Source: Escherichia coli
Lineage (GTDB): Bacteria; Pseudomonadota; Gammaproteobacteria; Enterobacterales; Enterobacteriaceae
Length of the DNA stretch: 64,000 nucleotides
Direction: 5' to 3' (one strand)
Assembly (NCBI RefSeq): GCF_030013205.1
Contig: NZ_CP122648.1
Part shown: piece by piece, positions 1-28,793 of the stretch
Position numbering within the stretch: position 1 is the first letter of the stretch
Layout of the letters: the number at the start of each line of letters is the position of its first letter
Notes under the pieces: generated by a model
Databases searched by the model: none
What the model was told of the DNA's origin: nothing
Seen by the model: only the letters and a program-made list of their open reading frames with translations
Position numbers and translations under genes: made by a program

Positions 1-146
1 GATTCATTCTTACCGCAGGCGCGGGTTCGAGGTTAAGAAAGCTCTCAGTCTCGACTATCGGCACTGGATAATCTCTGTCAGGCTGCCTTATTCCGAACGC
101 CCACCACGTGCGTCCCGCACTTTCCAGCAACGGATCTGGAGGTAAC

Positions 147-1196: not shown

Positions 1197-1209
1197 GTGG
1201 AGAACGAGC

Positions 1210-1962: not shown

Positions 1963-1993
1963 ATGATTTTTGCTGAAGATGGCGACATGATGT

Positions 1994-2022
1994 TTGCATT
2001 TTTCAAAAAATATGGATAAAAT
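1994..2022 (+). promoter_or_regulatory. Candidate PR-prime-like late promoter (-35 TTGCAT 1994-1999, 17 bp spacer, -10 TAAAAT 2017-2022)
   Basis: Sigma70-like hexamers read directly from the sequence, directly downstream of the Q gene and about 45 bp upstream of a strong intrinsic terminator, as in lambdoid late-control regions. Confidence 0.4.
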
Positions 2023-2066
2023 TTTTTCAACGATGGGCTTTGTATACCCGACGTTAAGAAAAAGTA

Positions 2067-2098
2067 GAAAACCCGCTGATGAGCGGGTTTTGTGCTTT
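2067..2098 (+). terminator. Intrinsic terminator (tR-prime-like) downstream of Q
   Basis: Stem ACCCGC / GCGGGT with loop TGATGA, followed by a T-rich tract TTTTGTGCTTT. Confidence 0.6.
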
Positions 2099-2383
2099 AA
2101 ATGGGGCAATGGTAATGTTGAATCTCATCCCGGGACTCATGTCTGTTAACTTATTATTTAGCTGGTGACTTGGTTATTTGCCTGATGTTTAAAATGTTTT
2201 CTTCCAGTACAATGTCCCTAAACACAATGAGTCTGCTTATTATATTATTAGCAGAGCTATTACGGCCAAAGTACAGCATAAGCTTTTAAAGCCAATCAAC
2301 CAGTCATCAAGACAGACGGGGTTATTCATAAAAACTCTCCATGTGTGATCCGATGGGGCCTGAAATTAAAGCTTTAATATAGC

Positions 2384-2596
2384 TCATGAAAGGTAAACAT
2401 TGGCAGCTGAAGGGCCACGCAGACCATTTATCCGGCAAAATTCCACGCGTAATCCGGTGGTAATTTCTTCTGCATCGCGGAGATTGAGCGCTGAAACATG
2501 AAGCTGGACATCGATACGACCATCGGATGGGGTGATAAGACCCTTGCCGCTTTTGCCGTCAAAGGTTTTGACAATTCCTGTCATTTTACGGGACAA
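2384..2596 (-). CDS. cspF: Cold-shock-domain protein CspF
   Basis: 70 aa [16 protein letters not shown]... with the cold-shock-domain fold pattern; matches recalled K-12 CspF. Confidence 0.9.
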
Positions 2597-2896
2597 AAAA
2601 ATTCCTTAATACTGATAACTTGGCGCACTATACACACGTTCCTGAAGAAAGCTATAGTTTTTTGATGGGGTTGAAGATGGCTGGATGTCTAAAATAAACA
2701 TTGCTTCATATGTTCAACTATGCGTTAATGATTGCGTCGGTTTGAAGAACAGACGATATACGAAGTAGTTTACTAAAGCAGTTCTCATTTCAGGTGTTAT
2801 TCACTTATTCCTTCTTTGAGTCTCTCCAATTAAGTACGAAGTCGTTTCTGTTATGCAAACCATTTATGCCGAAAGGCTCAAGTTAAGGAATGTAGA

Positions 2897-3112
2897 ATGT
2901 CAAATAAAATGACTGGTTTAGTAAAATGGTTTAACGCTGATAAAGGTTTCGGCTTTATTTCTCCTGTTGATGGTAGTAAAGATGTGTTTGTGCATTTTTC
3001 TGCGATTCAGAATGATAATTATCGAACCTTATTTGAAGGTCAAAAGGTTACCTTCTCTATAGAGAGTGGTGCTAAAGGTCCTGCAGCAGCAAATGTCATC
3101 ATTACTGATTAA
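2897..3112 (+). CDS. cspB: Cold-shock protein CspB
   Basis: 71 aa [24 protein letters not shown]... with RNP1-like motif (KGFGFI); long upstream leader typical of cold-shock genes. Confidence 0.9.
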
Positions 3113-3393
3113 AATTCATCGCTCGTCTGTATACGATAACGAAGAAGGCTGATGCCTGAGTAGAGATACGGACAGAGTAGTGAATATTGGATCTCTTTAA
3201 TAAAAAGTAAGGAGGTCCAATACATGAAACAATGGCTAGCATATTTGGCAAAATCTTAATCAGGAAAAGTATGCTAACCATTGTGGTGAAGTGCAGGTTT
3301 GCTGAATGAATAGTTTTACAGCAGAAGCTAACTGCTGGCATGGCAAAACAAAGTGCGTAAGTGGATGACTCCCACAAAAAGCACCACAATCTC

Positions 3394-3417
3394 AAACCCG
3401 CTCAGGCGGGTTTTTTA
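3394..3417 (+). terminator. Intrinsic terminator downstream of cspB
   Basis: Stem CCCGC / GCGGG with loop TCAG, followed by TTTTTT. Confidence 0.6.
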
Positions 3418-3475
3418 TTATCTGCTTTAAATATATTATTAAAATATAAAAAATACTTGTTACTAATAAAATCAA

Positions 3476-3646
3476 TCAGGCTACAGCTTTAAGATTTGTC
3501 TGGAATACTTTGTTGCAATGAGGGCAGATCAAAAGGGCACCTTTTTGTACTCTTGAAAAACTGTGTTCTGACTCTTGGGTGCAGTTTGGGCAGGAACATT
3601 TAACGAGATAATTACGGCGTGATTTTGAGTTTTTACGTTCTGACAT
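3476..3646 (-). CDS. ynfU: Small zinc-ribbon protein (CxCPxC ... CPxC), YnfU-like
   Basis: ORF 3476..3697; internal ATG at 3644-3646 with an AGGAAAAG Shine-Dalgarno-like sequence gives 56 aa MSERKNSKSRRNYLVKCSCPNCTQ...CPHCNKVF. The gene name is from memory and uncertain. Confidence 0.45.
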   Translation of the reverse strand: MSERKNSKSRRNYLVKCSCPNCTQESEHSFSRVQKGALLICPHCNKVFQTNLKAVA

Positions 3647-3865
3647 AGGCTTTTCCTGTATAAATGGCCGTATACAGTACACTAAATATGAAAACATTTC
3701 TCGTATTATTATTTTATATATGACTTTCTTTCAAAATAATTACCCACATTTTTAATGTGTATGTTTTTTTAGCGCCGTTGAGAACAACGTGTGCTGTCAA
3801 AACTACCCCGTAGACTCCGATCTTTTCAAACATATTGCACCATCCGTGTACATCGGGGTGAGGAT

Positions 3866-4081
3866 ATGAAATCAATGGATAAGTTAACAACAGGTGTTGC
3901 CTATGGCACATCGGCGGGTAATGCTGGTTTCTGGGCATTGCAGTTACTCGATAAAGTAACTCCGTCACAGTGGGCTGCAATCGGTGTGCTGGGTAGCCTG
4001 GTTTTTGGCCTGCTGACGTATCTGACAAATCTTTATTTCAAGATTAAAGAAGACAGGCGTAAGGCTGCGAGAGGAGAGTAA
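3866..4081 (+). CDS. essQ: Phage holin, phage-21 S-type (pinholin-like), with dual start motif MKSMDK
   Basis: ATG at 3866 preceded by GGGGTGAGGA; 71 aa with a hydrophobic transmembrane core and charged C-terminus; directly upstream of the endolysin. Confidence 0.8.
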
Positions 4082-4085
4082 TCCA

Positions 4086-4393
4086 ATGACTCAAGACTAT
4101 GAACTGGTTGTGAAAGGAGTCCGTAATTTTGAGAATAAAGTTACGGTAACTGTAGCCTTACAGGACAAAGAACGCTTTGACGGTGAAATTTTTGACCTGG
4201 ATGTCGCCATGGACCGTGTTGAAGGAGCTGCGCTGGAGTTTTATGAGGCAGCAGCCAGAAGGAGCGTCCGGCAAGTCTTCCTGGAAGTAGCAGAAAAATT
4301 GTCAGAAAAAGTTGAGTCTTATCTGCAGCATCAGTACTCCTTTAAGATTGAAAATCCTGCCAATAAGCACGAGCGTCCTCATCATAAATATCT

Positions 4394-4397
<4 letters not shown>
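4086..4397 (+). CDS. ydfR: Prophage protein of unknown function (DUF1327-like) located between holin and endolysin
   Basis: 103 aa ORF; its stop overlaps the endolysin start (4394..4397), suggesting translational coupling. Confidence 0.7.
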
Positions 4398-5421
<1,024 letters not shown>

Positions 5422-5782
5422 GGTAATATTAAATCGGAACATTTACATCGCGGAATGTAAAATTTAAATAAAAAGGACTCTTCCATGAGCCAAAATTCCT
5501 GAAATCTTAAGGGTAAGATAAAAGGTCTTAATCAGAATGACACGTTTTATTAATAAATAAAGCTATTCTTTCATTGCTGTGTTTTTCTTTACAAAAGTAA
5601 TCCTTGCTATGGGTGGTTAATCATGCGTTAATGGTGTTCTGGTTTGTTACAAATTTATCTGAAGCAGTCATTGTTATAATTTTATTATTTGTACCTCTTG
5701 AGATTTCCTTGTTGGTTTTTCTCTCTGATATTTTTTTCGGACCATTCTGCCCAAGGGCTAATTTCTTCAAAAGGTAATAATT

Positions 5783-5995
5783 ATGTCTAACAAAATGACT
5801 GGTTTAGTGAAATGGTTTAACCCTGAAAAAGGTTTTGGTTTCATCACGCCGAAAGATGGCAGCAAAGATGTGTTTGTCCATTTCTCAGCAATTCAGAGCA
5901 ACGATTTCAAAACATTAACTGAGAATCAGGAAGTTGAATTTGGTATTGAGAACGGACCTAAAGGTCCTGCCGCTGTTCATGTAGTGGCGCTTTGA
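5783..5995 (+). CDS. cspI: Cold-shock protein CspI
   Basis: 70 aa [26 protein letters not shown]..., a paralogue of cspB. Confidence 0.9.
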
Positions 5996-6194
5996 GGTAG
6001 ACAATATTACAAACCATATTCACTTTAGATGCCCGTGTTGTCATGGTTCCCAGTATAGAACATCATCTTTTGATGTTTCTGACATGAATCCTTTCGGGGC
6101 AAAATGTATCTTTTGTAAATCAATGATGATTACATTTGATAATATTTCACAATACTTAAATGCCAGCCGTCTGTCGTTGGATTTGAAAAAGTGA
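5985..6194 (+). other. Zinc-ribbon-like open frame (CPCC...CIFC) with no in-frame ATG/GTG/TTG upstream of the first Cys pair; possible pseudogene or unconventional start
   Basis: Frame is open from 5985 to the TGA at 6192-6194; encodes ...RCPCCHGSQYRTSSFDVSDMNPFGAKCIFCKSMMITF...; resembles the zinc-ribbon ORF at 3476..3646; followed by a hairpin plus T-run at about 6199-6226. Confidence 0.3.
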
Positions 6195-6341
6195 AAATGA
6201 AGGCTCCTTCGGGAGCTTTTTTGCTTGGTGTCTATTCGATGGATACTCACATACTACGGTAACATCATGAAAAAAATCATAGTTTTTTTTAACTCTGAAC
6301 CAGCAGTGGTAGTGCCAGCGATGACTGGAGTTAACACCATC

Positions 6342-6497
6342 ATGCGTGAATATCCAAATGGCGAAAAAACACACCTTACTGTAATGGCCGCAGGGTTTCC
6401 ATCTCTGACCGGAGATCATAAAGTCATTTATGTAGCCGCGGATCGACATGTTACTTCAGAAGAAATTCTGGAAGCAGCAATAAGGCTCTTGAGTTGA
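6342..6497 (+). CDS. ynfN: Small prophage protein (51 aa), YnfN-like
   Basis: ORF track 6225..6497; internal ATG at 6342 gives 51 aa MREYPNGEKTHLTVMAAGFPSLTGDH.... The start choice and the name are uncertain. Confidence 0.4.
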   Translation: MREYPNGEKTHLTVMAAGFPSLTGDHKVIYVAADRHVTSEEILEAAIRLLS

Positions 6498-6668
6498 TTT
6501 GATGCTATTGCATTGATAATTCAGGAAAATTCTCTTTGTCTGTTTGTGTAAAATTTAGACTATCGTATGTTGATTATTGCGATGTTTCATCTTATCTTTT
6601 ACACGTTTGCACCATATAATCGACTTACTGTGTAACTGGAAAGTCATAACAGACTAAAAGAGGAAATG

Positions 6669-6842
6669 ATGAATATTGAAAACTTAAAAACAAAAGCAGA
6701 AGCAGATATTTCTGAATATATAACAAAAAAAATTATTGAACTTAAGAAAAAGACCGGGAAAGAAGTTACCAGTATTCAGTTTACCGCACGGGAAAAAATG
6801 ACGGGTCTTGAAAGCTATGATGTCAAGATTAATTTAATCTGA
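6669..6842 (+). CDS. gnsB: GnsA/GnsB-family small protein (57 aa)
   Basis: Below the 60 aa track cut-off, so read by hand: ATGATG at 6666-6671, stop TGA at 6840-6842; MNIENLKTKAEADISEYITKKIIELKKKTGKEVTSIQFTAREKMTGLESYDVKINLI; AGGAAA Shine-Dalgarno-like sequence upstream. Confidence 0.65.
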   Translation: MNIENLKTKAEADISEYITKKIIELKKKTGKEVTSIQFTAREKMTGLESYDVKINLI

Positions 6843-6993
6843 TGTATTCAATAATAAAATTTATCCATAAACCTCGTTTTTACGGGGTTTTGTTATATTT
6901 GAATGGTTCCGAATATCTAAATCACAATTGTTGATGGTTTTTATTAAACCAATGCAGTCCGGCTCAGGAGTGAGAGAAGCCGGACGTTATGGT

Positions 6994-7419
6994 TTAGCGT
7001 GGTAAGATCTGTGTAGTTTTCTGGATGCTTTCAGTAAATAGTAATGAATTATCAAAGGTATAGTAATATCTTTTTTGTTCGTGGATATTTGTAACCCACC
7101 GAAAAACTCCTGCTTTAGCAAGGTTTCTTCTGTATTCCTGAAATGTGATCTCTCTGGATTTCAGCTTATTAGAGGTCGTTTCTATAAGATGCCTATCCTT
7201 TGAAAATTTGACAGACACAATGTTTTTTAGGCCCTTTAATAACACTGTATTATCATTTTTTAATACAATATGAACATTCTCTGTGGCTAAATAGTAAATG
7301 TAATGTGAGACATTGTGACGTTTTAGCTCAGAATAAAACCATTGATAGTTTAAATCGTTTCGAACTTTATCAAATATTTGTTTAAAAATGACTACCTGAT
7401 CCATAGATAAACCTTCCAT
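6994..7419 (-). CDS. ydfO: DUF1398-family prophage protein
   Basis: 141 aa ORF (alternative start at 7404 gives 136 aa); co-directional with and immediately downstream of the ribbon-helix-helix gene. Confidence 0.7.
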
Positions 7420-7461
7420 GTGATATGAGGGGGCGTAGTCTGCACGATTATCTAAATTGCT

Positions 7462-7695
7462 TCAATCTGGTCTGACCTGTTTTCTGAGCAATTCAGTAAT
7501 GTCACTCTTTTCTTTGTTTGCTTCAGAAGAAACTCTTTTTTCTGAGCACAGTCTCCGGCGGCAGGCTTCAATGACCCAGGCTGAGAAATTCCCGGACCCT
7601 TTTTGCTCAAGAGCGATGTTAATTTGTTCAATCATTTGGTTAGGAAAGCGGATGTTGCGGGTTGTTGTTCTGCGGGTTCTGTTCTTCGTTGACAT
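7462..7695 (-). CDS. ynfO: Small ribbon-helix-helix-like DNA-binding protein
   Basis: 77 aa; segment RNIRFPNQMIEQINIALEQKG...NFSAWVIEACRRRL fits a beta-strand plus two helices as in Arc/CopG-type proteins. Confidence 0.6.
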   Translation of the reverse strand: MSTKNRTRRTTTRNIRFPNQMIEQINIALEQKGSGNFSAWVIEACRRRLCSEKRVSSEANKEKSDITELLRKQVRPD

Positions 7696-7799
7696 GAGGT
7701 TGCCCCGTATTCAGTGTCGCTGATTTGTATTGTCTGAAGTTGTTTTTACGTTAAGTTGATGCAGATCAATTAATACGATACCTGCGTCATAATTGATTA

Positions 7800-8083
7800 T
7801 TTGACGTGGTTTGATGGCCTCCACGCACGTTGTGATATGTAGATGATAATCATTATCGCTTTACGGGTCCTTTCCGGTGATCCGACAGGTTACGGGGCGG
7901 CGACCTCGCGGGTTTTCGCTATTTATGAAAATTTTCCGGTTTAAGGTGTTTCCGTTCTTCTTCGTCGTAACTTAATGTTTTTATTTAAAATACCCCCTGA
8001 AAAGAAAGGAAACGACAGGTGCTGAAAGCGAGCTTTTTGGCCTCTGTCGTTTCCTTTCTCTGTTTTTGTCCGTGGAATGAGCA
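7800..8083 (+). other. Lambda-type cos site (cosQ/cosN/cosB); cosN 12-nt cohesive-end sequence GGGCGGCGACCT at 7895..7906
   Basis: The sequence around 7881-8083 matches the recalled junction of the lambda right and left ends (..TCCGACAGGTTACG | GGGCGGCGACCTCGCGGGTTTTCGCTATTTATGAAAATTTTCCGGTTTAAGG..), followed by the Nu1-like gene. Confidence 0.75.
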
Positions 8084-8629
8084 ATGGAAGTCAACAAAAA
8101 GCAGCTGGCTGACATTTTCGGTGCGAGTATCCGTACCATTCAGAACTGGCAGGAACAGGGAATGCCCGTTCTGCGAGGCGGTGGCAAGGGTAATGAGGTG
8201 CTTTATGACTCTGCCGCCGTTATAAGATGGTATGCCGAAAGGGATGCTGAAATTGAGAACGAAAAGCTGCGCCGGGAAGTTGAAGAACTGCGGCAGGCCA
8301 GCGAGACAGATCTCCAGCCAGGGACTATTGAGTACGAACGCCATCGACTTACGCGTGCGCAGGCCGACGCACAGGAGCTGAAAAATGCCAGAGACTCCGC
8401 TGAAGTGGTGGAAACCGCATTCTGTACTTTCGTGCTGTCGCGGATCGCAGGTGAAATTGCCAGTATTCTCGACGGGATCCCCCTGTCGGTGCAGCGGCGT
8501 TTTCCGGAACTGGAAAACCGACATGTTGATTTCCTGAAACGGGATATCATCAAAGCCATGAACAAAGCAGCCGCGCTGGATGAACTGATACCGGGGTTGC
8601 TGAGTGAATATATCGAACAGTCAGGTTAA
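8084..8629 (+). CDS. nohA: Terminase small subunit (lambda Nu1 homologue)
   Basis: 181 aa MEVNKKQLADIFGASIRTIQNWQEQGMPV..., essentially lambda Nu1 with a winged-HTH N-terminus. Confidence 0.85.
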   Translation: MEVNKKQLADIFGASIRTIQNWQEQGMPVLRGGGKGNEVLYDSAAVIRWYAERDAEIENEKLRREVEELRQASETDLQPGTIEYERHRLTRAQADAQELKNARDSAEVVETAFCTFVLSRIAGEIASILDGIPLSVQRRFPELENRHVDFLKRDIIKAMNKAAALDELIPGLLSEYIEQSG

Positions 8630-10088
8630 CAGGCTGCGGCATTTTGTCCGCGCCGGGCTTCGCTCACTGTTCAGGCCGGAGCCACAGACCGCCGTTGAAT
8701 GGGCGGATGCTAATTACTATCTCCCGAAAGAATCCGCATACCAGGAAGGGCGCTGGGAAACACTGCCCTTTCAGCGGGCCATCATGAATGCGATGGGCAG
8801 CGACTACATCCGTGAGGTGAATGTGGTGAAGTCTGCCCGTGTTGGTTATTCCAAAATGCTGCTGGGTGTTTATGCCTACTTCATAGAGCATAAGCAGCGC
8901 AACACCCTTATCTGGTTGCCGACGGATGGTGATGCCGAGAACTTTATGAAAACTCACGTTGAGCCGACCATCCGTGATATTCCTTCGCTGCTTGCGCTGG
9001 CCCCGTGGTATGGCAAAAAGCACCGGGATAACACGCTCACCATGAAGCGTTTCACCAATGGTCGTGGCTTCTGGTGCCTGGGCGGTAAAGCGGCAAAAAA
9101 CTACCGTGAAAAGTCGGTGGATGTGGCGGGTTATGATGAACTTGCTGCTTTTGATGATGATATTGAACAGGAAGGCTCTCCGACGTTCCTGGGTGACAAG
9201 CGTATTGAAGGCTCGGTCTGGCCAAAGTCCATCCGTGGCTCCACGCCCAAAGTGAGAGGCACCTGCCAGATTGAGCGTGCAGCCAGTGAATCCCCGCATT
9301 TTATGCGTTTTCATGTTGCCTGCCCGCACTGCGGGGAGGAGCAGTACCTTAAATTTGGCGATAAAGAGACGCCGTTTGGCCTCAAATGGACGCCGGATGA
9401 TCCCTCCAGCGTGTTTTATCTCTGCGAGCATAATGCCTGCGTCATCCGCCAGCAGGAGCTGGACTTTACTGATGCCCGTTATATCTGCGAAAAGACCGGG
9501 ATCTGGACCCGTGATGGCATTCTCTGGTTTTCGTCATCCGGTGAAGAGATTGAGCCGCCGGACAGTGTGACCTTTCACATCTGGACGGCGTACAGCCCGT
9601 TCACCACCTGGGTGCAGATTGTCAAAGACTGGATGAAAACGAAAGGGGATACGGGAAAACGTAAAACCTTCGTGAACACCACGCTCGGTGAGACGTGGGA
9701 AGCGAAAATCGGCGAACGTCCGGATGCTGAAGTGATGGCAGAGCGGAAAGAGCATTATTCAGCGCCCGTTCCTGACCGTGTGGCTTACCTGACCGCCGGT
9801 ATCGACTCCCAGCTGGACCGCTACGAAATGCGCGTATGGGGATGGGGGCCGGGTGAGGAAAGCTGGCTGATTGACCGGCAGATTATTATGGGCCGCCACG
9901 ACGATGAACAGACGCTGCTGCGTGTGGATGAGGCCATCAATAAAACCTATACCCGCCGGAATGGTGCAGAAATGTCGATATCCCGTATCTGCTGGGATAC
10001 TGGCGGGATTGACCCGACCATTGTGTATGAACGCTCGAAAAAGCATGGGCTGTTCCGGGTGATCCCCATTAAAGGGGCATCCGTCTAA
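8604..10088 (+). pseudogene. Terminase large subunit (lambda gpA homologue), N-terminal 494 codons only; truncated by an internal prophage deletion
   Basis: GTG start overlapping nohA; protein matches the recalled lambda gpA N-terminus up to ...[10 protein letters not shown], then a stop. Lambda continues YGKPVASMPRKRNKNG, which is absent here. Confidence 0.8.
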
Positions 10089-10149
10089 GGGACGCTTCCT
10101 GAACAACATTAACGCGGTCAGTAAAACAGACTTTGCTGATAAGCGTGGT

Positions 10150-11904
10150 ATGCGTTATGTGCGGGTTAACGCTCCTGCAGGTGCAACATCTGGAAAATAT
10201 TACCCTGTTGTTGTTATGCGTTCTGCTGGCTCAGTAAGCGAACTGGCATCAAGGGTCATTATCACCACGGCACCGCGAACCGCAGGCGATCCGATGAATA
10301 ACTGCGAGTTTAACGGATTTGTTATGCCTGGTGGCTGGACTGACAGGGGGCGTTATGCTTATGGAATGTTCTGGCAATATCAAAACAATGAACGAGCCAT
10401 CCACTCAATAATGATGAGTAATAAGGGCGATGATTTGCGCTCTGTGTTCTATGTTGATGGCGCTGCTTTCCCTGTTTTTGCGTTTATCGAAGATGGCCTG
10501 TCAATATCCGCACCTGGTGCTGATCTCGTTGTTAATGATACGACCTATAAGTTTGGGGCAACAAATCCAGCGACTGAATGTATCGCGGCGGACGTTATCC
10601 TTGATTTTAAGAGTGGGCGTGGTTTTTATGAGTCTCATTCGTTAATCGTTAACGATAACTTGTCGTGCAAAAAACTTTTTGCCACAGACGAAATTGTAGC
10701 GCGTGGTGGTAATCAGATTCGAATGATAGGTGGGGAGTATGGTGCATTATGGCGTAATGATGGCGCTAAAACTTACCTGCTGCTTACCAATCAAGGTGAT
10801 GTTTATGGTGGCTGGAATACATTAAGACCGTTTGCTATTGATAACGCAACCGGCGAACTGGTTATTGGAACCAAACTGTCCGCAAGTCTGAACGGTAATG
10901 CATTAACAGCAACAAAGCTGCAAACGCCAAGACTGGTTTCTGGTGTTGAGTTTGATGGTTCCAAAGATATTACTTTAACCGCCGCGCATGTGGCTGCTTT
11001 TGCCAGAAGGGCAACGGATACATATGCCGATGCGGATGGTGGCGTTCCCTGGAATGCCGAATCAGGCGCTTACAATGTCACCCGCTCTGGCAACAGCTAT
11101 ATTCTGGTTAACTTCTATACCGGAGTCGGAAGTTGCCGGACATTGCAGATGAAGGCGCATTACAGAAATGGAGGTCTGTTCTACCGTTCCTCAAGAGATG
11201 GCTATGGTTTTGAGGAAGACTGGGCAGAAGTTTATACCTCGAAAAATCTTCCACCAGAAAGCTACCCAGTCGGTGCACCAATCCCGTGGCCATCAGATAC
11301 CGTTCCGTCTGGTTATGCCCTGATGCAGGGGCAGACTTTTGACAAATCTGCTTACCCGAAACTTGCAGCCGCTTATCCGTCAGGCGTGATCCCTGATATG
11401 CGTGGCTGGACGATTAAGGGCAAACCTGCCAGTGGTCGGGCCGTATTGTCTCAGGAACAGGACGGCATTAAATCGCACACCCACAGCGCCAGCGCATCCA
11501 GTACGGATTTGGGGACGAAAACCACATCGTCGTTTGATTACGGCACTAAATCCACGAATAACACCGGGGCGCATACCCATAGTGTTAGCGGTACGGCTGC
11601 TTCAGCCGGTGCACATACCCATTCGATAACATTTGTTTCAGGTGGCACCAAAGGTGCTCCGGGAAGTGGATCACCTGATTATTCTAAATACAGTGTTAAC
11701 ACTTCTTCTGCAGGCGCTCATACGCACTCTGTATCGGGTACTGCTGCAAGCGCAGGTGCACACGCACATACTGTAGGTATTGGTGCGCATACGCACTCGG
11801 TTGCGATTGGTTCACATGGACACACCATCACCGTTAACGCTGCTGGTAACGCGGAAAACACCGTCAAAAACATCGCATTTAACTATATTGTGAGGCTTGC
11901 ATAA
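10150..11904 (+). CDS. stfQ: Side tail fibre protein fragment (Stf-like C-terminal region)
   Basis: 584 aa ORF with repeated GAHTHS motifs near the C-terminus, typical of lambda Stf / T-even long-tail-fibre tips; followed by a Tfa gene; upstream end abuts the terminase deletion junction. Confidence 0.6.
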
Positions 11905-12479
11905 TGGCATTCAGAATGAGTGAACAACCACGGACCATAAAAATTTATAATCTGCTGGCCGGAACTAATGAATTTATTGGTGAAGGTGATGCATATATTC
12001 CGCCTCATACAGGTCTGCCAGCAAACAGTACCGATATTGCACCGCCAGATATTCCGGCTGGCTTCGTGGCTGTTTTCAACAGTGATGAGTCATCGTGGCA
12101 TCTCGTTGAAGATCATCGGGGTAAAACGGTTTATGACGTGGCTTCCGGCGACGCGTTATTTATTTCTGAACTCGGTCCGTTACCGGAAAATGTTACCTGG
12201 TTATCGCCGGAAGGGGAGTTTCAGAAGTGGAACGGCACAGCCTGGGTGAAGGATACGGAAGCAGAAAAACTGTTCCGGATCCGGGAGGCGGAAGAAACAA
12301 AAAACAACCTGATGCAGGTAGCCAGTGAGCATATTGCGCCGCTTCAGGATGCTGCAGATCTGGAAATCGCAACGGAGGAAGAAATCTCGTTGCTGGAAGC
12401 ATGGAAAAAGTATCGGGTATTGCTGAACCGTGTTGATACGTCAACTGCACAGGATATTGAATGGCCAGCACTGCCGTAG
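11904..12479 (+). CDS. tfaQ: Tail fibre assembly protein (Tfa family)
   Basis: 191 aa; start overlaps the stf stop; conserved Tfa C-terminal region. Confidence 0.8.
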
Positions 12480-12576
12480 GGTAAAACATATAAATTCTAT
12501 AATTAGATGTATCTTTCCATTTACGGCAAGGAAGGGGGCTTGGAAGACGTAAAGCATCTCACACCGAGATTATTTT

Positions 12577-13167
12577 TTATATGTCAGGTGTCTGAAGTTT
12601 TGCTTTGGCTCTTAAAATGGTTTGCCGCGAGGTTTTGAATTCCCGGGCAATGGCACTTATACTTACACCTGACTTAATTCGTTCGAATACCGCCTGTTTC
12701 TGTTCTTCATTTAACACAGGTGGTCGACCAAAACGTTTCCCTGCGCCGCGGGCACTTACTATCCCGGAATGAGTGCGTTCAAGTAAAAGGTCTCGTTCAA
12801 ATTCAGCGACTGCTGAAATTACTTGCATCATCATTTTTCCTGTTGGACTGGTCAGGTCAATGCCCCCCAATGCTAAGCAATGCACTCTGATACCTGTTTC
12901 GGTCAGTTGTTCCACTGTTTTCCTGATATCCATTGCATTACAACCAAGGCGATCCAGTTTTGTCACAATCAATTGATCACCACATTTCAGGCGAGCAAGC
13001 AACCGGTTAAAACCAGGACGCTCACTGGTTGCTGCTGAGCCGCTAATGTGTTCTTCGATTATTTGCTGAGGTTTGATTTTAAAACCTGCACTTTCGATTT
13101 CCCGGCGTTGATTTTCGGTGGTCTGATCCAGCGTTGATATCCGACAGTAAGCAAAAATTCGAGACAT
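12577..13167 (-). CDS. pinQ: Serine recombinase / DNA invertase (Pin family)
   Basis: 196 aa; N-terminal resolvase catalytic domain (YCRISTLDQ with catalytic Ser) and C-terminal HTH; convergent with tfa. Confidence 0.8.
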
Positions 13168-13483
13168 AGTGAGACTCTATACGAAATTGGTGTTCATATC
13201 ATAATGCATCTCAGAAAATAATTATGATTATTTTTGTGCATATTTGTATGTACACGTTCGAAAATAAACGAATGCGTATGCAACCCCGTAATTTTGGTGA
13301 GACCCAAAATCGATTTTGTGAAAAATGGCTTTAACTCGGTTTGTTTTTCGAGTTCCGGGCGGACTCAAGGAAGAAGAATAGTGTTGCGTGTTATTTTAAC
13401 CAGATTTCAAGTTGTTTGGTCGTGGAAAAGTGGAGCAAAATGTTGTTAAAGTGGAAAAATGATAAAAAAGTAAGTTTATTATA

Positions 13484-13717
13484 TTACATTTTACCATTTA
13501 AATTTTGGTTGTCTTTAAGAACTGATATCGCTGTTTGTAATAATTCTTTGTTATCCAGCCATGATTTTTTCTTTATGTTTCCTTCAATGTAATCAAGCAA
13601 TGTTCTGGTATTGATAGGTCTTCCCTGTTTTGCTACTTCCACTACAGCATCCCCTAGGATAATTCTTACTTCAGGAAGCTGCGCAGGGAACCACTTTAGG
13701 GTGTCTTTTGATTTCAT
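13484..13717 (-). CDS. ydfK: Small prophage protein YdfK-like (77 aa)
   Basis: ORF 13484..13750; internal ATG at 13715-13717 with an AAGGAA Shine-Dalgarno-like sequence gives 77 aa. Confidence 0.55.
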   Translation of the reverse strand: MKSKDTLKWFPAQLPEVRIILGDAVVEVAKQGRPINTRTLLDYIEGNIKKKSWLDNKELLQTAISVLKDNQNLNGKM

Positions 13718-14502
13718 GAAGATATTCCTTAAAATATTATTGATTTTCATTGCGATATTGTATGTCTGATTCAGGATATGTTGACTTATACATCGGTTTT
13801 GTCTGGGTTATTGGATATGCCAATCCCTAATTTTATTAGGGCATGACTAAAAATGCTGAATATGATAAGGAGAGATGTGATTATCAGTATGCTGTTCATA
13901 TAGCCTCGAATTAGTAATGTGTTATATATGATATAGTTGACAATTTTTATCTTGGGTGTTCTTAAAGTTCGTAGATAAACATTGTCGTTTCAGGTATACA
14001 GGAATGCTAACAGGTGGCAGCAAAAATCAGGCGGTTTATGGCGCAAGCTGAAGCGGCAACTGCAAACTATCTTATGCAGAGACTCTACACGGATTGGGTT
14101 TAAAAGTATACATAGATAACAGTTTTTATCTGAAAAAGAAAAATATCAAGGTGATATAGCCTATATGCCTTTGATGCGGAGGAATGAATGTGATGGGAGT
14201 GATGTATCTGAATAGTTGAAAAACCGCAGACACGCCTTATGCAAGAACGTGCTGCGGTTGGCTGGTAAATTTTTCGATAGTGTGAGTATTGAATGATTTC
14301 CAGCCGTTCTTGATTTTACGCATAAATCCATGAAAAAACTACTTATCTGTTGGGGAGTTTTTTTGGGGCATATATGGGACAGAAATAGGCCCCAGATAGA
14401 CACTGAGATCGAACTTAGGATGCTTTTTAAAAAATGCAACTATCTGAAAAAACCTAGAAAACGCCAAGGAAACCACAGGATGGGAAAAAACACCTGTGAA
14501 TT

Positions 14503-15786
14503 ATGGATTTCCAGTTATATTCGCTCGGCGCAGCGTTAGTGTTTCATGAAATATTTTTTCCTGAATCATCAACGGCAATGGCGTTAATTCTGGCAATGGG
14601 AACCTACGGTGCAGGTTATGTGGCGCGTATTGTCGGAGCATTTATTTTCGGCAAAATGGGCGACAGAATCGGGCGTAAAAAAGTGCTCTTTATTACCATC
14701 ACTATGATGGGGATCTGTACTACCTTAATTGGTGTGCTGCCGACCTATGCACAAATTGGTGTGTTTGCGCCAATTTTGCTGGTGACGCTGCGTATTATTC
14801 AGGGGCTGGGGGCAGGCGCGGAAATTTCCGGTGCCGGCACGATGCTGGCGGAATATGCACCAAAAGGTAAGCGCGGAATTATCTCCTCATTTGTTGCTAT
14901 GGGGACTAACTGCGGAACCTTGAGCGCAACGGCAATCTGGGCCTTTATGTTCTTCATTCTCAGTAAAGAGGAACTGCTTGCGTGGGGATGGCGTATACCG
15001 TTCCTGGCGAGCGTTGTCGTGATGGTCTTTGCTATCTGGTTGCGTATGAATCTGAAAGAAAGCCCGGTCTTTGAGAAGGTTAACGACAGCAACCAACCGA
15101 CAGCAAAACCTGCACCTGCTGGTAGCATGTTCCAGAGCAAATCCTTCTGGCTGGCAACAGGGCTGCGTTTTGGTCAGGCTGGTAACTCCGGTTTAATTCA
15201 GACTTTCCTTGCAGGCTATTTAGTGCAGACGTTATTGTTTAACAAAGCAATTCCAACAGATGCATTGATGATCAGTTCGATTCTCGGCTTTATGACCATT
15301 CCGTTCCTTGGTTGGTTATCCGATAAAATAGGTCGCCGGATCCCGTATATTATTATGAATACCTCTGCGATTGTGCTGGCGTGGCCAATGCTTTCTATCA
15401 TCGTAGATAAAAGCTATGCCCCGAGCACCATTATGGTTGCACTGATTGTGATTCATAACTGTGCGGTGCTGGGATTATTTGCTCTGGAAAACATTACCAT
15501 GGCAGAAATGTTCGGCTGTAAAAACCGCTTTACCCGGATGGCGATTTCTAAAGAAATTGGTGGTCTTATCGCTTCCGGTTTTGGTCCTATCCTGGCGGGT
15601 ATTTTCTGCACCATGACGGAATCCTGGTATCCGATCGCCATTATGATCATGGCATATTCAGTGATTGGTTTAATCTCTGCGCTGAAAATGCCAGAAGTGA
15701 GAGACCGTGATTTAAGTGCACTGGAAGATGCCGCGGAAGATCAACCGCGTGTTGTAACAGCTGCGCAACCTTCAAGAAGTCTGTAA
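14503..15786 (+). CDS. ydfJ: MFS metabolite:H+ symporter-family transporter, apparently N-terminally truncated by the prophage insertion
   Basis: 427 aa polytopic membrane protein starting in what looks like the first transmembrane helix (MDFQLYSLGAALVFHEIFFP); an in-frame stop lies immediately upstream; a phage non-coding region precedes it. Confidence 0.7.
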   Translation: MDFQLYSLGAALVFHEIFFPESSTAMALILAMGTYGAGYVARIVGAFIFGKMGDRIGRKKVLFITITMMGICTTLIGVLPTYAQIGVFAPILLVTLRIIQGLGAGAEISGAGTMLAEYAPKGKRGIISSFVAMGTNCGTLSATAIWAFMFFILSKEELLAWGWRIPFLASVVVMVFAIWLRMNLKESPVFEKVNDSNQPTAKPAPAGSMFQSKSFWLATGLRFGQAGNSGLIQTFLAGYLVQTLLFNKAIPTDALMISSILGFMTIPFLGWLSDKIGRRIPYIIMNTSAIVLAWPMLSIIVDKSYAPSTIMVALIVIHNCAVLGLFALENITMAEMFGCKNRFTRMAISKEIGGLIASGFGPILAGIFCTMTESWYPIAIMIMAYSVIGLISALKMPEVRDRDLSALEDAAEDQPRVVTAAQPSRSL

Positions 15787-15875
15787 ATCCTCCATCCCTT
15801 CTCTTACCGGAGAGGGGATTTTTTATTCATATAACAAAACATGCAGCTTGCCATATTTAAATTTAAGGAATTGTT

Positions 15876-17336
15876 ATGGGAAATAATTTGTTATCAGCAA
15901 AAGCGACGCTCCCTGTTTATGATCGTAATAACCTGGCCCCAAGAATTGTTCATTTAGGCTTTGGCGCATTTCACCGTGCGCATCAGGGCGTGTATGCCGA
16001 TATTCTTGCTACAAAACATTTCAGTGATTGGGGATATTATGAGGTCAATTTAATCGGCGGCGAACAGCAAATTGCCGATTTACAACAGCAAGATAATCTT
16101 TATACCGTTGCGGAAATGTCGGCCGATGCGTGGACGGCTCGCGTCGTTGGCGTCGTTAAAAAAGCCTTGCACGTACAGATAGATGGCTTAGAAACCGTGT
16201 TGGCTGCGATGTGTGAACCGCAAATCGCGATTGTCTCTCTGACAATCACCGAAAAAGGGTATTTCCACTCTCCGGCGACCGGACAGTTAATGCTCGATCA
16301 CCCGATGGTCGCTGCCGACGTGCAAAATCCCCACCAGCCGAAAACTGCAACAGGGGTGATTGTTGAGGCGCTGGCTCGCCGTAAAGCGGCAGGACTTCCC
16401 GCATTTACCGTCATGTCATGTGACAACATGCCAGAAAACGGTCATGTTATGCGTGACGTTGTCACTTCCTACGCGCAAGCTGTTGATGTAAAACTGGCAC
16501 AATGGATCGAAGTAAACGTGACTTTCCCATCAACAATGGTGGACCGTATTGTGCCCGCAGTGACAGAGGATACGCTGGCGAAAATCGAACAACTTACCGG
16601 TGTGCGCGATCCTGCTGGCGTTGCCTGTGAACCTTTCCGCCAGTGGGTAATAGAAGATAACTTTGTTGCCGGACGTCCGGAATGGGAAAAAGCGGGAGCC
16701 GAACTGGTTAGTGATGTGCTGCCTTATGAAGAGATGAAGTTGCGCATGCTCAACGGCAGTCATTCATTCCTGGCGTATCTGGGGTATCTTGCTGGATATC
16801 AGCACATTAATGACTGCATGGAAGATGAACATTATCGTCATGCAGCGTATGCCTTGATGTTGCAGGAACAAGCGCCGACGTTGAAAGTGCAGGGCGTTGA
16901 TTTGCAAGATTACGCTAACCGATTAATTGAACGCTATAGCAACCCGGCGCTACGTCATCGAACCTGGCAGATTGCGATGGATGGCAGCCAGAAATTGCCA
17001 CAGCGGATGTTGGATTCTGTTCGCTGGCATCTGGCGCATGACAGCAAGTTCGATCTGCTGGCGCTGGGCGTCGCAGGTTGGATGCGTTATGTCGGTGGTG
17101 TTGATGAACAGGGAAATCCGATAGAAATCAGTGACCCACTGTTACCTGTTATTCAGAAGGCTGTACAAAGTAGTGCCGAAGGGAAAGCGCGCGTCCAGTC
17201 ATTGCTGGCGATTAAGGCGATCTTTGGTGATGATTTGCCAGACAATAGCTTGTTTACTGCAAAAGTGACGGAAGCGTACTTGTCTTTATTAGCGCATGGT
17301 GCGAAAGCGACCGTTGCGAAATATTCCGTGAAGTAA
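15876..17336 (+). CDS. ydfI: Mannitol-dehydrogenase-family oxidoreductase (D-mannonate oxidoreductase-like)
   Basis: 486 aa; N-terminal Rossmann motif ([10 protein letters not shown]); similar to UxuB/UxaB-type enzymes. Confidence 0.85.
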
Positions 17337-17751: not shown

Positions 17752-18438
17752 TTACTCTTCGCTAAACCAGTCGCTGTTTTCCTGGCGGATCTGGCGCACG
17801 GATTCGCTGATTTCCTGCAAATGTTGCGTCATTGCACGTTCTACCGCATCGCCATCACGTTTTTGCAGGGCAGAGAAAATATCAAGATGCTGGCGTAACA
17901 GCATTTCTGGTGGAGAAACGTGGTCGAAACACATATAGCGCACGCGATCAACGGTCGCTTTCAGGTTCTCAATGGTATCCCACGCCAGTTGACAGTCGGC
18001 AATCTGCGTCAGGAGTTGATGGAAGTTGTCATCAAGTTCAAAAAAATCATCCAGTTGCTTGCGCTCAATGGCAATGCGTTGCTGGTGAAGATTTTGTTCC
18101 AGTTGGTAGCACTGGCTTTCGGTAATCATGCTCGCCGCCCGACGCGCCACCGCGCACTCAATGGCCTGACGGATAAAACTGCCGTTGCGCACCTGGGCCA
18201 TGGAAATTTTGTTGACGTAGCTGCCACGCTGCGGACGAATTTGAATCAGGCCGTTTTCCGCCAGTTTAATAAAGGCTTCACGAACCGGCTGGCGTGACAC
18301 ATTGAAACGAACAGAAACTTCTTTTTCCGACAACGGTGTGCCTGGTGCAATCAGGCAATGGACAATGTCGCGACGAAGAATACGATAAATCTGCTGATTG
18401 ACAGGCTGTGTGGGATTAAGTTGCGTTTCGACGGTCAT
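17752..18438 (-). CDS. ydfH: GntR/FadR-family transcriptional regulator
   Basis: 228 aa; N-terminal winged HTH ([24 protein letters not shown]) and FCD-type C-terminal domain. Confidence 0.8.
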
Positions 18439-25203: not shown

Positions 25204-26103
25204 ATGTCGCGAAAAGATGGGGTGTTGGCGCTACTGGTAGTGGTCGTATGGGGGCTAAATTTTGTGGTCATCAAAGTGGGGCTTCATAACATGCCACCGC
25301 TGATGTTGGCCGGTTTGCGCTTTATGCTGGTTGCTTTTCCGGCTATCTTTTTTGTCGCACGACCGAAAGTACCACTGAATTTGCTGCTGGGGTATGGATT
25401 AACCATCAGTTTTGCGCAGTTTGCTTTTCTTTTTTGTGCCATTAACTTCGGTATGCCTGCTGGACTGGCTTCGCTGGTGTTACAGGCACAGGCGTTTTTT
25501 ACTATCGTGCTTGGCGTGTTTACTTTTGGTGAGCGACTGCATGGCAAACAATTGGCGGGGATCGCCTTAGCGATTTTTGGCGTACTGGTGTTAATCGAAG
25601 ATAGTCTGAACGGTCAGCATGTGGCGATGTTCGGCTTTATGTTGACCCTGGCGGCAGCATTTAGTTGGGCGTGTGGCAACATCTTCAATAAAAAGATCAT
25701 GTCGCACTCAACGCGTCCGGCGGTGATGTCGCTGGTAATCTGGAGCGCATTAATCCCAATCATTCCCTTCTTTGTTGCCTCGCTGATTCTCGATGGTTCC
25801 GCAACCATGATTCACAGTCTGGTCACTATCGATATGACCACCATCTTGTCTCTGATGTATCTGGCGTTTGTGGCGACAATTGTTGGTTATGGGATCTGGG
25901 GGACGTTACTGGGACGCTATGAAACCTGGCGGGTTGCACCGTTATCGTTACTGGTGCCCGTAGTAGGACTGGCAAGTGCGGCACTATTGTTGGATGAACG
26001 CTTAACGGGTCTACAATTTTTCGGTGCGGTGCTCATTATGACCGGGCTGTATATCAATGTATTTGGCTTGCGGTGGCGTAAAGCGGTAAAGGTTAGAGGC
26101 TAA
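25204..26103 (+). CDS. eamA: Cysteine / O-acetylserine exporter (DMT superfamily, EamA)
   Basis: 299 aa from the ATG at 25204; two EamA-type repeats. Confidence 0.85.
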   Translation: MSRKDGVLALLVVVVWGLNFVVIKVGLHNMPPLMLAGLRFMLVAFPAIFFVARPKVPLNLLLGYGLTISFAQFAFLFCAINFGMPAGLASLVLQAQAFFTIVLGVFTFGERLHGKQLAGIALAIFGVLVLIEDSLNGQHVAMFGFMLTLAAAFSWACGNIFNKKIMSHSTRPAVMSLVIWSALIPIIPFFVASLILDGSATMIHSLVTIDMTTILSLMYLAFVATIVGYGIWGTLLGRYETWRVAPLSLLVPVVGLASAALLLDERLTGLQFFGAVLIMTGLYINVFGLRWRKAVKVRG

Positions 26104-26109
26104 ACCATA

Positions 26110-26149
26110 CGCACAGAATGTGATGTCAGCACTCTGTGCGTCTGCTTTT
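26110..26149 (+). terminator. Hairpin plus T-rich tract downstream of eamA, at the left edge of the PTS island
   Basis: Stem CGCACAGA / TCTGTGCG with a 15-nt loop, followed by TCTGCTTTTA. Confidence 0.4.
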
Positions 26150-26846
26150 ATCGCGGGAAAAAGTACTTTACCTGGAACTCGAAAATATTGCTGTAAAGTA
26201 ACGAATAATCCAGCGGAATAGAGTTACTGTCCACAGCCTGGGTCTGGATTTTAAGTATGGGATCCCGTGGGCTGATCCGTAAAATACTGGCGATTTCTGG
26301 GGTAGGAAAAGTAGGGGAGAAAGTTTCAAAGGTGCCAATGATTTTGATCCCGCATTCGTTCTCAATATACGAAAATTTGGATTTTTGCATATGTGCTACG
26401 GTTAAATCAGGAAAACGTGCCACTGACATCCACGTTTCTTCTAATTGTGCTGCATTATCCTCAATGAATCGCAGTCTCTTTATGTAATAAACCTGCTCAC
26501 CAGTCACTAAATTCAGCTCAGTCGCAATAGGGGGTGAAGCATCCTGCACTTCAAATTTCATAATCTGACTTCCTGCCTCCTTGCCGCTTTTATGCGCAAT
26601 TTCACTGAAGCTGTTCATGTGATCAATGTGTGCAACAAAATTCTTTTTTTGAATATATGTTCCTGAACCATGCTTTCTATGAATAATTCCTTCGCCTTCC
26701 AGCAAGGATAATGCCTTACGCAGGGTATTACGCGAAACATTATAACGAACAGCGAGTTCAGCTTCTGACGGCAACAAATCACCAACATGCCATGAATAGC
26801 CATTGATCTCGGATTTAAGTAAGCGGGCAATCTTTTGAAAAATCAC
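26148..26846 (-). CDS. GntR/HutC-family transcriptional regulator (HTH plus UTRA-like effector domain)
   Basis: 232 aa; N-terminal GntR HTH (LPSEAELAVRYNVSRNTLRKAL); divergent from the PTS operon. Confidence 0.8.
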   Translation of the reverse strand: MIFQKIARLLKSEINGYSWHVGDLLPSEAELAVRYNVSRNTLRKALSLLEGEGIIHRKHGSGTYIQKKNFVAHIDHMNSFSEIAHKSGKEAGSQIMKFEVQDASPPIATELNLVTGEQVYYIKRLRFIEDNAAQLEETWMSVARFPDLTVAHMQKSKFSYIENECGIKIIGTFETFSPTFPTPEIASILRISPRDPILKIQTQAVDSNSIPLDYSLLYSNIFEFQVKYFFPR

Positions 26847-27044
26847 TTTTGCACCTTTTAAGAGCCATTGAAAACAAGGAGTTGAGTCCTGATTGGTTTA
26901 TCGTATGGTCGAGTCGTTTAATTATCACCCTGATGTTGAACAACTTTAGTGCTGTATTACTGTGATCAATGTACCAGGACGTATAGCTACTGCGGGATAT
27001 GATATTTACACAATGTAATCTGTTATATACCAGTAAGGGAAAAT

Positions 27045-27356
27045 ATGAAAAAAATATTGTTAGTTTGCGCTGCGGGCATGTCAACCAGTATGCTGGTTAA
27101 ACGTATGATTGATCATGCTAACGCTATTTCACTTGAAGTTAATATTTCCGCATTGGCGATTGCAGAGGCTAAAGGGAAAATTAAAAATAACGAAGTTGAC
27201 GTTGTTTTACTTGGCCCGCAAGTTCGCTTTCAGAAACCAGAGATTGAAGCTGTTGCACAGGGGAAAATGCCTGTAGCTGTTATCGAGATGAAAGACTATG
27301 GCACCATGAACGGACAGGCAGTTCTTGAATTTGCGATGAAACTACTGCAAGAGTAA
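27045..27356 (+). CDS. PTS EIIB component, lactose/cellobiose family
   Basis: 103 aa; MKKILLVCAAGMSTSMLV with the phosphorylatable Cys near the N-terminus. Confidence 0.8.
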   Translation: MKKILLVCAAGMSTSMLVKRMIDHANAISLEVNISALAIAEAKGKIKNNEVDVVLLGPQVRFQKPEIEAVAQGKMPVAVIEMKDYGTMNGQAVLEFAMKLLQE

Positions 27357-27431
27357 GAATCTAATATTATTAAACTATTACCTGAACTAACTTTTCACAC
27401 ATCATAAAATGGCTATGGCATACATGCTTTA

Positions 27432-28793
27432 TTGGGATGTATAAATATCCAGAACAACAGGTATAAAAAAATGGGATTAATGACCTCATTCGAACGTGGA
27501 ATGGAACGTTTTCTTGTTCCAGTTGCTATCAAGTTAAACTCACAAAAACATGTTGCAGCGGTGAGAGATGGATTCGTTTTTACGTTTCCAATTATCATGG
27601 CAAGCTCATTAATTATATTAATAAACTTTGCCATATTATCGCCAGACGGCTTTATTGCCGGACTGCTGCATCTGAACAGCGTTTTTCCCAACCTTGAAAA
27701 AGCACAAGCTATTTTTACTCCGGTAATGAATGGCTCTGTAAATATCATGTCAATTATGATTGCTTTCCTGGTCGCCAGAAATATGGCGATTAGCTATGAG
27801 CAAGATGATCTTTTATGCGGATTAACGGCAATAGGCGCATTTTTTATTGTTTATACGCCATATCAGATGATAGATGGGCAAGCATTCCTGACGACCAAAT
27901 ATCTCGGCGCACAGGGGTTGTTTGTTGCTGTTATAGTTGCATTAATCACAAGTGAAATATTTTGTCGCTTAGCTCGAAACCCAAAAATCACCATAACGAT
28001 GCCGGCAGCTGTACCTCCTGCGGTAGCGCGTTCATTTAAAGTTTTATTGCCAATATTTTTTGTCATGGTGTTCTTTTCCGCACTTAATTATTGCCTGACA
28101 CTGATATCCCCGGCAGGATTAAACGATCTTATTTACACATTAATCCAGACGCCGCTCAAACATATGGGAACGAATATCTTTGCGGTAATTATCCTGGGGG
28201 CTGTGGGTAATTTCCTTTGGGTGCTGGGGATCCACGGACCTAATACCACCTCGGCAATTCGAGAAACTGTTTTTTCTGAGGCTAATCTGGAGAATCTCTC
28301 CTGGGCCGCTCAACACGGCACTACCTGGGGCGCGCCATATCCGATTACCTGGACTTCTATTAATGATGCATTCGCCAACTGCGGCGGTTCAGGTATGACG
28401 TTGGGGTTATTGTTGGCTATTTTTATCGCTTCTAAGCGTGCGGAATACCGTGATCTGGCAAAAATGTCGTTTATCCCCGGTATTTTCAATATCAATGAAC
28501 CGGTAATGTTCGGCCTTCCTATTGTACTTAACCCCATCATGATGGTGCCGTTTATTCTGGTTCCCATTGTTAACTGTGCCATTGGTTACTTCTTTGTTTC
28601 GATGGAAATTATTCCACCGGTTGCTTATGCCGTGCCCTGGACTACGCCCGGACCTTTAATTGCTTTCCTCGGAACCGGGGGAAACTGGCTGGCGTTACTG
28701 GTGGGTTTTTTATGTTTAGGTGTGGCGACAATGATCTATTTACCTTTTGTTATTGCCGCCAACAAGGTCAATAACATGACAACTAACGGATAA
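27432..28793 (+). CDS. PTS EIIC permease, lactose/cellobiose family
   Basis: 453 aa polytopic membrane protein between the IIB and IIA genes; alternative start at 27472. Confidence 0.8.
   Translation: MGCINIQNNRYKKMGLMTSFERGMERFLVPVAIKLNSQKHVAAVRDGFVFTFPIIMASSLIILINFAILSPDGFIAGLLHLNSVFPNLEKAQAIFTPVMNGSVNIMSIMIAFLVARNMAISYEQDDLLCGLTAIGAFFIVYTPYQMIDGQAFLTTKYLGAQGLFVAVIVALITSEIFCRLARNPKITITMPAAVPPAVARSFKVLLPIFFVMVFFSALNYCLTLISPAGLNDLIYTLIQTPLKHMGTNIFAVIILGAVGNFLWVLGIHGPNTTSAIRETVFSEANLENLSWAAQHGTTWGAPYPITWTSINDAFANCGGSGMTLGLLLAIFIASKRAEYRDLAKMSFIPGIFNINEPVMFGLPIVLNPIMMVPFILVPIVNCAIGYFFVSMEIIPPVAYAVPWTTPGPLIAFLGTGGNWLALLVGFLCLGVATMIYLPFVIAANKVNNMTTNG

Follow-up and report, generated by a model that had tools for sequence, protein, structure and literature searches.

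Does the transporter gene that opens directly beside phage DNA in this stretch of the Escherichia coli chromosome begin where it should, or has the phage cut it? In the window, the whole stretch of 64,000 nucleotides analyzed here, phage genes give way to an open reading frame (ORF) of 427 codons, which a sequence-only reading had taken for ydfJ, interrupted in its 5′ part by an integrated prophage. Our analysis suggested that positions 14497-14511 are almost certainly the attR of a Qin-type (mEp460-like) lambdoid prophage, which its integrase inserted into an attB at codons 28-31 of ydfJ; no evidence contradicting this reading was found. The splitting of ydfJ by Qin-type prophages is an ordinary event that has already been described (PMC6379469; PMC8112680), and Qin is reported to lie at the 5′ end of ydfJ, with 28 N-terminal codons and the promoter lost (PMC6379469). 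The features needed for the argument are as follows.

1-14500, no strand: right-hand part of a Qin-type defective lambdoid prophage (gene order as in K-12; annotation by way of strain K_EC180)
12577-13167, minus strand: pinQ, serine recombinase gene among the last phage genes before attR; of the invertase type, not the integrase
13484-13717, minus strand: ydfK, prophage cold-shock gene (from annotation)
13786-13899, minus strand: ynfT, small prophage gene and last annotated phage coding sequence before attR
14503-15786, plus strand: ydfJ′, truncated MHS-family MFS transporter gene, codons 29-455 of 455 (427 aa)
15876-17336, plus strand: ydfI, mannitol-dehydrogenase-family oxidoreductase gene, directly downstream of ydfJ and parted by the prophage from rspA-rspB

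Length and N-Terminus of YdfJ

In the E. coli strains 27992 and 10035776-3, where the site is empty, the genes rspA-rspB-ydfJ-ydfI are contiguous and ydfJ encodes 455 aa. The 1284 nt of ydfJ′ in the window are 100% identical at the nucleotide level to codons 29-455 of the 10035776-3 allele, and 28 N-terminal residues are gone. The assignment of the gene to ydfJ agrees with RefSeq/PGAP, which flags ydfJ of the near-identical strain K_EC180 as "incomplete; missing N-terminus."

A database search returned the 455-aa form from E. coli, together with YdfJ orthologues of 454-460 aa in Citrobacter, Enterobacter, Lelliottia and Leclercia, with 82-85% identity. Among the matches listed, the forms shorter than 454 aa with a named organism were all from E. 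coli, and the 427-aa form showed 99% identity to the E. coli query. Residues 12-28 (DLVKAAVSGWLGTALEF) were invariant or almost so across 14 aligned full-length proteins. As a whole protein the window ORF belongs to the MHS family (TIGR00883, metabolite/H+ symporter), scoring 453.5 bits against 462.9 bits for the intact protein and a curated cutoff of 443.45. Its alignments enter the profiles late, at position 7 rather than 1 in TIGR00883, 37 rather than 12 in ShiA (a model of 438 positions), 40 rather than 22 in ProP (500 positions) and 37 rather than 14 in the MFS family model PRK10406. The first hydrophobic stretch in the hydropathy plot covers about residues 12-48, with Met29 in its middle. 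A complete N-terminus with a first transmembrane helix was thus not found in the window ORF, whose 28 missing residues include residues 12-28. Taken together, hydropathy, conservation and profile coordinates indicate that the Met29 start would fall in the middle of the first transmembrane helix, and the abrupt beginning that had been noticed from the letters is borne out.

An AlphaFold2 model of intact YdfJ, made from a 15-sequence alignment for the boundaries of this helix, was discarded at a mean pLDDT of 36.9, and a PDB sequence search found no solved homologue of YdfJ at E <= 1e-5.

Sequence of the Junction and the att Core

The surroundings of position 14503 read cac ctg TGA att ATG gat ttc cag. 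By direct reading, the TGA at 14497-14499 is an in-frame stop of phage origin, two codons 5′ of the ATG; an in-frame TGA directly upstream had been reported correctly but placed at 14494-14496, which is CTG, one codon (3 nt) away. The ATG at 14503 corresponds to the codon of Met29, internal to native ydfJ, and lies within the att core; the phage did not create this start. The DNA before it is AT-rich and of phage type, as had been claimed: GC content is 0.31-0.40 over 13250-14450 vs. 0.44-0.52 within ydfJ, and the neighboring genes are ynfT, ydfK, pinQ, tfaQ and a tail fiber gene. Around the junction we distinguished three elements.

14224-14500, no strand: phage arm of attR (the P arm of attP), non-coding and conserved among otherwise different ydfJ prophages
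14501-14511, no strand: attR copy of the exact att core TTATGGATTTC, 11 bp, the same in attB, attP, attL and attR
14497-14511, no strand: extended imperfect core, TGAATT-ATGGATTTC in the window vs. TGAATTTATGGATTTC in attB (one T fewer)

A single copy of the core TTATGGATTTC is present in the window, vs. 0.03 copies expected by chance. It is bordered on its left by the attP-type sequence CCTGTGAATT and on its right by the attB-type sequence CAGTTATATTCG. Megablast homology to the empty-site genomes (27992 and 10035776-3) begins at 14497-14501, with none further upstream, and similarity reaches 14497 when one indel in the T run is allowed. The att sequence of phages that integrate into ydfJ (PPydfJ) measures 18-19 bp (Nakamura et al., 2021, PMC8112680, S7 Fig legend), and the extended core counted from 14497 fits this report.

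A four-way alignment was built from the empty site (attB), the left end of the K_EC180 prophage (attL), the window (attR) and the phage mEp460_ev081 (attP), with the following sequence around the core.

attB: GCGCTTG-AATTTATGGATTTC CAGTTATATTCG
attP: ACACCTGTGAATTATGGATTTC AAGAGTCATACG
attL: left side from attB, right side from attP
attR: left side from attP, right side from attB

The left flank is of the attB type in attL and of the attP type in attR, which places the crossover inside the 11-bp identity. Joining attL and attR and removing one core rebuilds attB exactly, with no loss of host sequence.

An unannotated 69-aa ORF (14330-14539, plus strand) crosses the att junction, starting in phage DNA and entering ydfJ in a frame other than that of the gene; it is without family support and probably spurious.

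The Opposite Prophage End

The N-terminal codons of ydfJ had been expected beyond the window, at the far end of the prophage. The 5′ 81 nt of the gene are indeed missing from the window (0 matches at up to 3 mismatches). The left junction was read in K_EC180 (NZ_CP062203.1), a strain with 99.97% identity to the window across 36 kb (1 mismatch, 9 gaps). The displaced 5′ piece of ydfJ lies there at 18013-18105 of the K_EC180 locus (L003), beginning 58 bp after rspB, and contains the second core at 18095-18105. Its reading frame, MTIEKHERSTKDLVKAAVSGWLGTALEFMDF-KSHAC*, is 36 aa long (L003 18013-18123), and the stop codon of int lies 38 bp beyond the core, at L003 18143. The same chimera is annotated in K-12 as "protein YnfP" (b4534, 36 aa; NC_000913.3 1652728..1652838), which consists of ydfJ codons 1-31, 5 phage codons (KSHAC) and a stop.

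In the coordinates of the K_EC180 record, the left core precedes window position 1 by about 13 kb, and the element measures about 27.5 kb in all; rspB lies about 27.5 kb away in this strain, in which ydfJ is followed by ydfI, ydfZ, rspR, ydfG and dcp (RefSeq). The K_EC180 integrase, encoded outside the window next to an excisionase gene, has 426 aa with PF12167 Arm-DNA-bind_2 (E 3.7e-22) and PF00589 Phage_integrase (E 3.9e-18); with both a catalytic and an arm-DNA-binding domain, it is a heterobivalent tyrosine integrase. The marks of a Qin/PPydfJ-type attR were all found: a break of homology, a second core with 5′ ydfJ beside int, a contiguous attP and the gene content of Qin.

The Phage Arm and Free Phages

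We searched phage genomes with a 712-bp attP construct, made of the window phage arm with the core (14150-14511) and the int-side arm of K_EC180. The construct was contiguous at 100% query cover in PhiR42_1 (100% identity), mEp460_ev081 (99.6%), HannyBb (99.3%) and Tritos (98.7%), so that the attP region of these phages is 98.7-100% identical to the joined prophage ends. All four are deposited as complete phage genomes, 45-49 kb in size, which presumably include the head and tail genes lost from the window prophage. In mEp460_ev081, the phage that was inspected, the order is tail fiber, tail-fiber assembly (tfa), Ser recombinase, ydfK-like gene, attP, int, xis and exo, which is the window right end joined to the K_EC180 left end, and the flanking genes match those ends as well. 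In addition, the Stx2a-converting phage records LC727844-LC727872 are about 90% identical to parts of the attP region, at one end of the record, which suggests that these phages may carry a related int/att module.

The extent of the arm held in common with the window differs among prophages, starting from about 14224 in the E6474 prophage and covering only about 14350-14511 in the O157:H7 prophage with DUF1076 genes. That different ydfJ prophages have the proximal arm in common is what would be expected of a functional attP arm and a shared integrase type. Short repeats were observed in and near the arm, TATCTGAA at 14127, 14205 and 14441 and GAAAAAAC at 14332, 14446 and 14484, as well as an invariant GGGGCATATATGGGACA at 14366-14382 in its conserved part. 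These motifs are candidate Int-arm, IHF or Xis sites; the arm, of which about 150-280 bp are conserved among different prophages, may carry the binding sites of these proteins.

Taken together, a tyrosine integrase almost certainly recombined attP with attB inside ydfJ, at codons 28-31, by a crossover within the 11-bp TTATGGATTTC. A crossover within the core means that phage DNA, including the in-frame TGA, replaces ydfJ codons 1-27 and that the remaining ORF begins at Met29. The first 31 codons, with 5 phage codons, remain at attL beside int and xis, outside the window, and the same event severed ydfJ-ydfI from rspA-rspB, their immediate upstream neighbors where the site is empty. Transporter function and the native ydfJ promoter were presumably lost with it.

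Two other origins of the junction deserve to be weighed against the attR reading. In one, the transporter is native and full-length at 427 aa and the phage only adjoins its gene in an intergenic position, as might be thought from K-12, whose RefSeq record treats ydfJ (b1543, 427 aa) as an ordinary CDS rather than a pseudogene, and from the TIGR00883 score, which passes the cutoff even for the short protein. The intact 455-aa alleles in 2009 of 5426 E. coli genomes, the 454-460 aa of four other genera with their almost invariant residues 12-28, the late entry into TIGR00883, ShiA and ProP and the PGAP flag speak against it, and we give this explanation hardly any probability; homologues in which 427 aa is the native length with a normal first helix, the finding that was to overturn the interpretation made from the sequence, did not appear. 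The other ascribes the break to a deletion, an IS-mediated rearrangement or illegitimate recombination rather than to an integrase. The heavy decay of the prophage, with a cut terminase fused to a cut tail-fiber gene, and the IS2 within intQ of K-12 would be in keeping with such events, but the att alignment is perfectly reciprocal, attP is contiguous in four free phages, the host sequence is fully kept and the breakpoint is common to unrelated prophages, which makes this origin exceedingly unlikely as well. The integration of the prophage in the 5′ part of ydfJ, as first proposed, is therefore upheld by the four-way alignment and by the attP of free phages.

Prophage Content and Related Elements

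The prophage genes of the window run in the order ydfU, ydfT (Q-like antiterminator), cspF/B, lysis genes, cspI, gnsB and nohA, followed by a cut terL, a cut stf fused to it, tfaQ, pinQ, ydfK and ynfT; about 600 bp of non-coding DNA separate ynfT from ydfJ′. The terminase large-subunit gene without its C-terminus (8604-10088) adjoins the tail-fiber gene without its N-terminus (10082-11904), and one deletion within the prophage appears to account for the absence of all head and tail genes. Because of this apparent loss, the prophage is defective despite intact int and xis. An Rfam scan of 13000-15000 returned only sub-threshold chance matches (CssrB, 25 bits vs. a gathering score of 76).

The closest known counterpart is the cryptic prophage Qin of K-12 (NC_000913.3 1632277..1652745), which abuts the 427-aa ydfJ on one side and the 36-aa ynfP on the other. 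It resembles the window element in the attR junction, the core, the 427-aa ydfJ and the right-arm order from ynfT, ydfK, pinQ, tfaQ, stf and nohA to ydfU; the right arm over 14100-14520 is almost identical, and 13800-16000 of the window shows 97.7% identity to K-12-type records. The two elements differ in size (20.5 kb for K-12 Qin vs. about 27.5 kb for the window element as read in K_EC180), and in that of the window the tail-fiber remnant is longer and fused to the cut terminase gene. Whereas K-12 has the pseudogenes ydfE and intQ with IS2, K_EC180 carries an intact integrase, an excisionase and a 2.4-kb exonuclease gene (L003 18143-22253 vs. L004, the K-12 locus, 26079-28709), and between dicC and ydfW it has additional decayed genes (DUF977, a methyltransferase and an ISNCY transposase remnant).

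PPydfJ prophages of STEC (O157:H7, O26:H11 and others; PMC8112680) share with the window the ydfJ site, the truncation point and about 150 bp of the proximal attP arm. In O157:H7, however, the DNA is unrelated to the window upstream of about 14350, and the cargo beside attR consists of three DUF1076 genes and a DinI-like gene in place of pinQ, ydfK and ynfT; we take these DUF1076 genes to be the nleG-type effector genes described at this prophage end in PMC8112680. Compared with phage lambda, the system is alike in the short core common to attP and attB, in xis beside int, in an integrase with an N-terminal arm-binding domain, and in a long conserved phage arm on the side away from int with a short arm abutting int. 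It differs in the core sequence, in its target (within ydfJ vs. the intergenic gal-bio site of lambda) and in the arm-binding family, which is PF12167 here.

Occupancy of the Site Among E. coli

A 201-bp query across attB was unbroken, and the site thus empty, in 2009 of the 5426 complete E. coli genomes searched (about 37%); most of the remaining genomes hold a prophage of some kind at the site, with the query split at the core. The right arm of the window from at least about 14224 is present in 2574 genomes, and the E6474 and O157:H7 prophages cut ydfJ at the same nucleotide as in the window. In other studies, Qin was found in 48% of 638 strains (PMC6379469) and many strains, K-12 included, are occupied at ydfJ (Nakamura et al., 2021, PMC8112680). 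In two independent pairs, the window with 10035776-3 (L006) and K-12 (L004) with 27992 (L002), the occupied and empty ydfJ alleles are nucleotide-identical, so that gain or loss of the prophage must be recent relative to divergence by point mutation.

Fate of the Truncated Gene

Given this identity, an intact ydfJ′ ORF says nothing on function, as there has been no time for decay. This bears on the possibility that ydfJ′ is still alive, transcribed from a phage-side promoter, translated from Met29 and yielding a working or partly working transporter. The 427-codon ORF is intact in every occupied genome examined and annotated as a CDS in K-12, and one RNA-seq study lists ydfJ among the genes changing on DicC induction in K-12, which means that ydfJ′ is transcribed to some extent. 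Against it, the intact ORF is uninformative for the reason just given, and the missing residues 12-28, almost invariant elsewhere, correspond to the N-terminal half of the first hydrophobic segment. A promoter scan of 13736-14503 found no sigma-70-like promoter on the plus strand, which is a weak negative, and direct reading of cacctgtgaattATG before the ATG at 14503 found no Shine-Dalgarno-like sequence. A living ydfJ′ therefore seems very improbable to us. A dN/dS comparison of truncated and intact alleles as a test of selection was dropped, the alleles being nucleotide-identical in the two pairs.

A further possibility is "active lysogeny," in which the prophage would serve as a reversible switch and its excision by Int and Xis would conditionally restore ydfJ and the rspAB-ydfJ-ydfI cluster. 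K_EC180 has retained int (426 aa), xis and both att cores in intact form, occupied and empty sites are found on identical ydfJ alleles, and precise excision would rebuild the gene exactly. The pattern is, however, equally explained by temperate phages that come and go in the ordinary way at a much-used attB, empty in 37% of genomes, and the K-12 integrase is a pseudogene; we hold such a switch to be very improbable. A limited literature search on ydfJ, rspAB and ydfI found no link to a substrate such as gulonate. More broadly, it appears very unlikely that the Qin-type element serves as a conditional switch or that the Met29-initiated YdfJ′ or the 36-aa YnfP chimera has a function of its own.

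Implications for E. coli

Beyond the correct annotation of YdfJ and YnfP, the significance of the split is slight. The 427-aa "YdfJ" carried by K-12 and by roughly half of E. coli genomes is what remains of the protein after N-terminal truncation, not its native form. Moreover, few lambdoid attB sites in E. coli are as heavily used as ydfJ, whose users include effector-carrying STEC prophages; this is relevant for prophage typing. As the rspA-rspB-ydfJ-ydfI cluster is split in occupied strains, work on its transport or metabolic role should use strains in which the site is empty.
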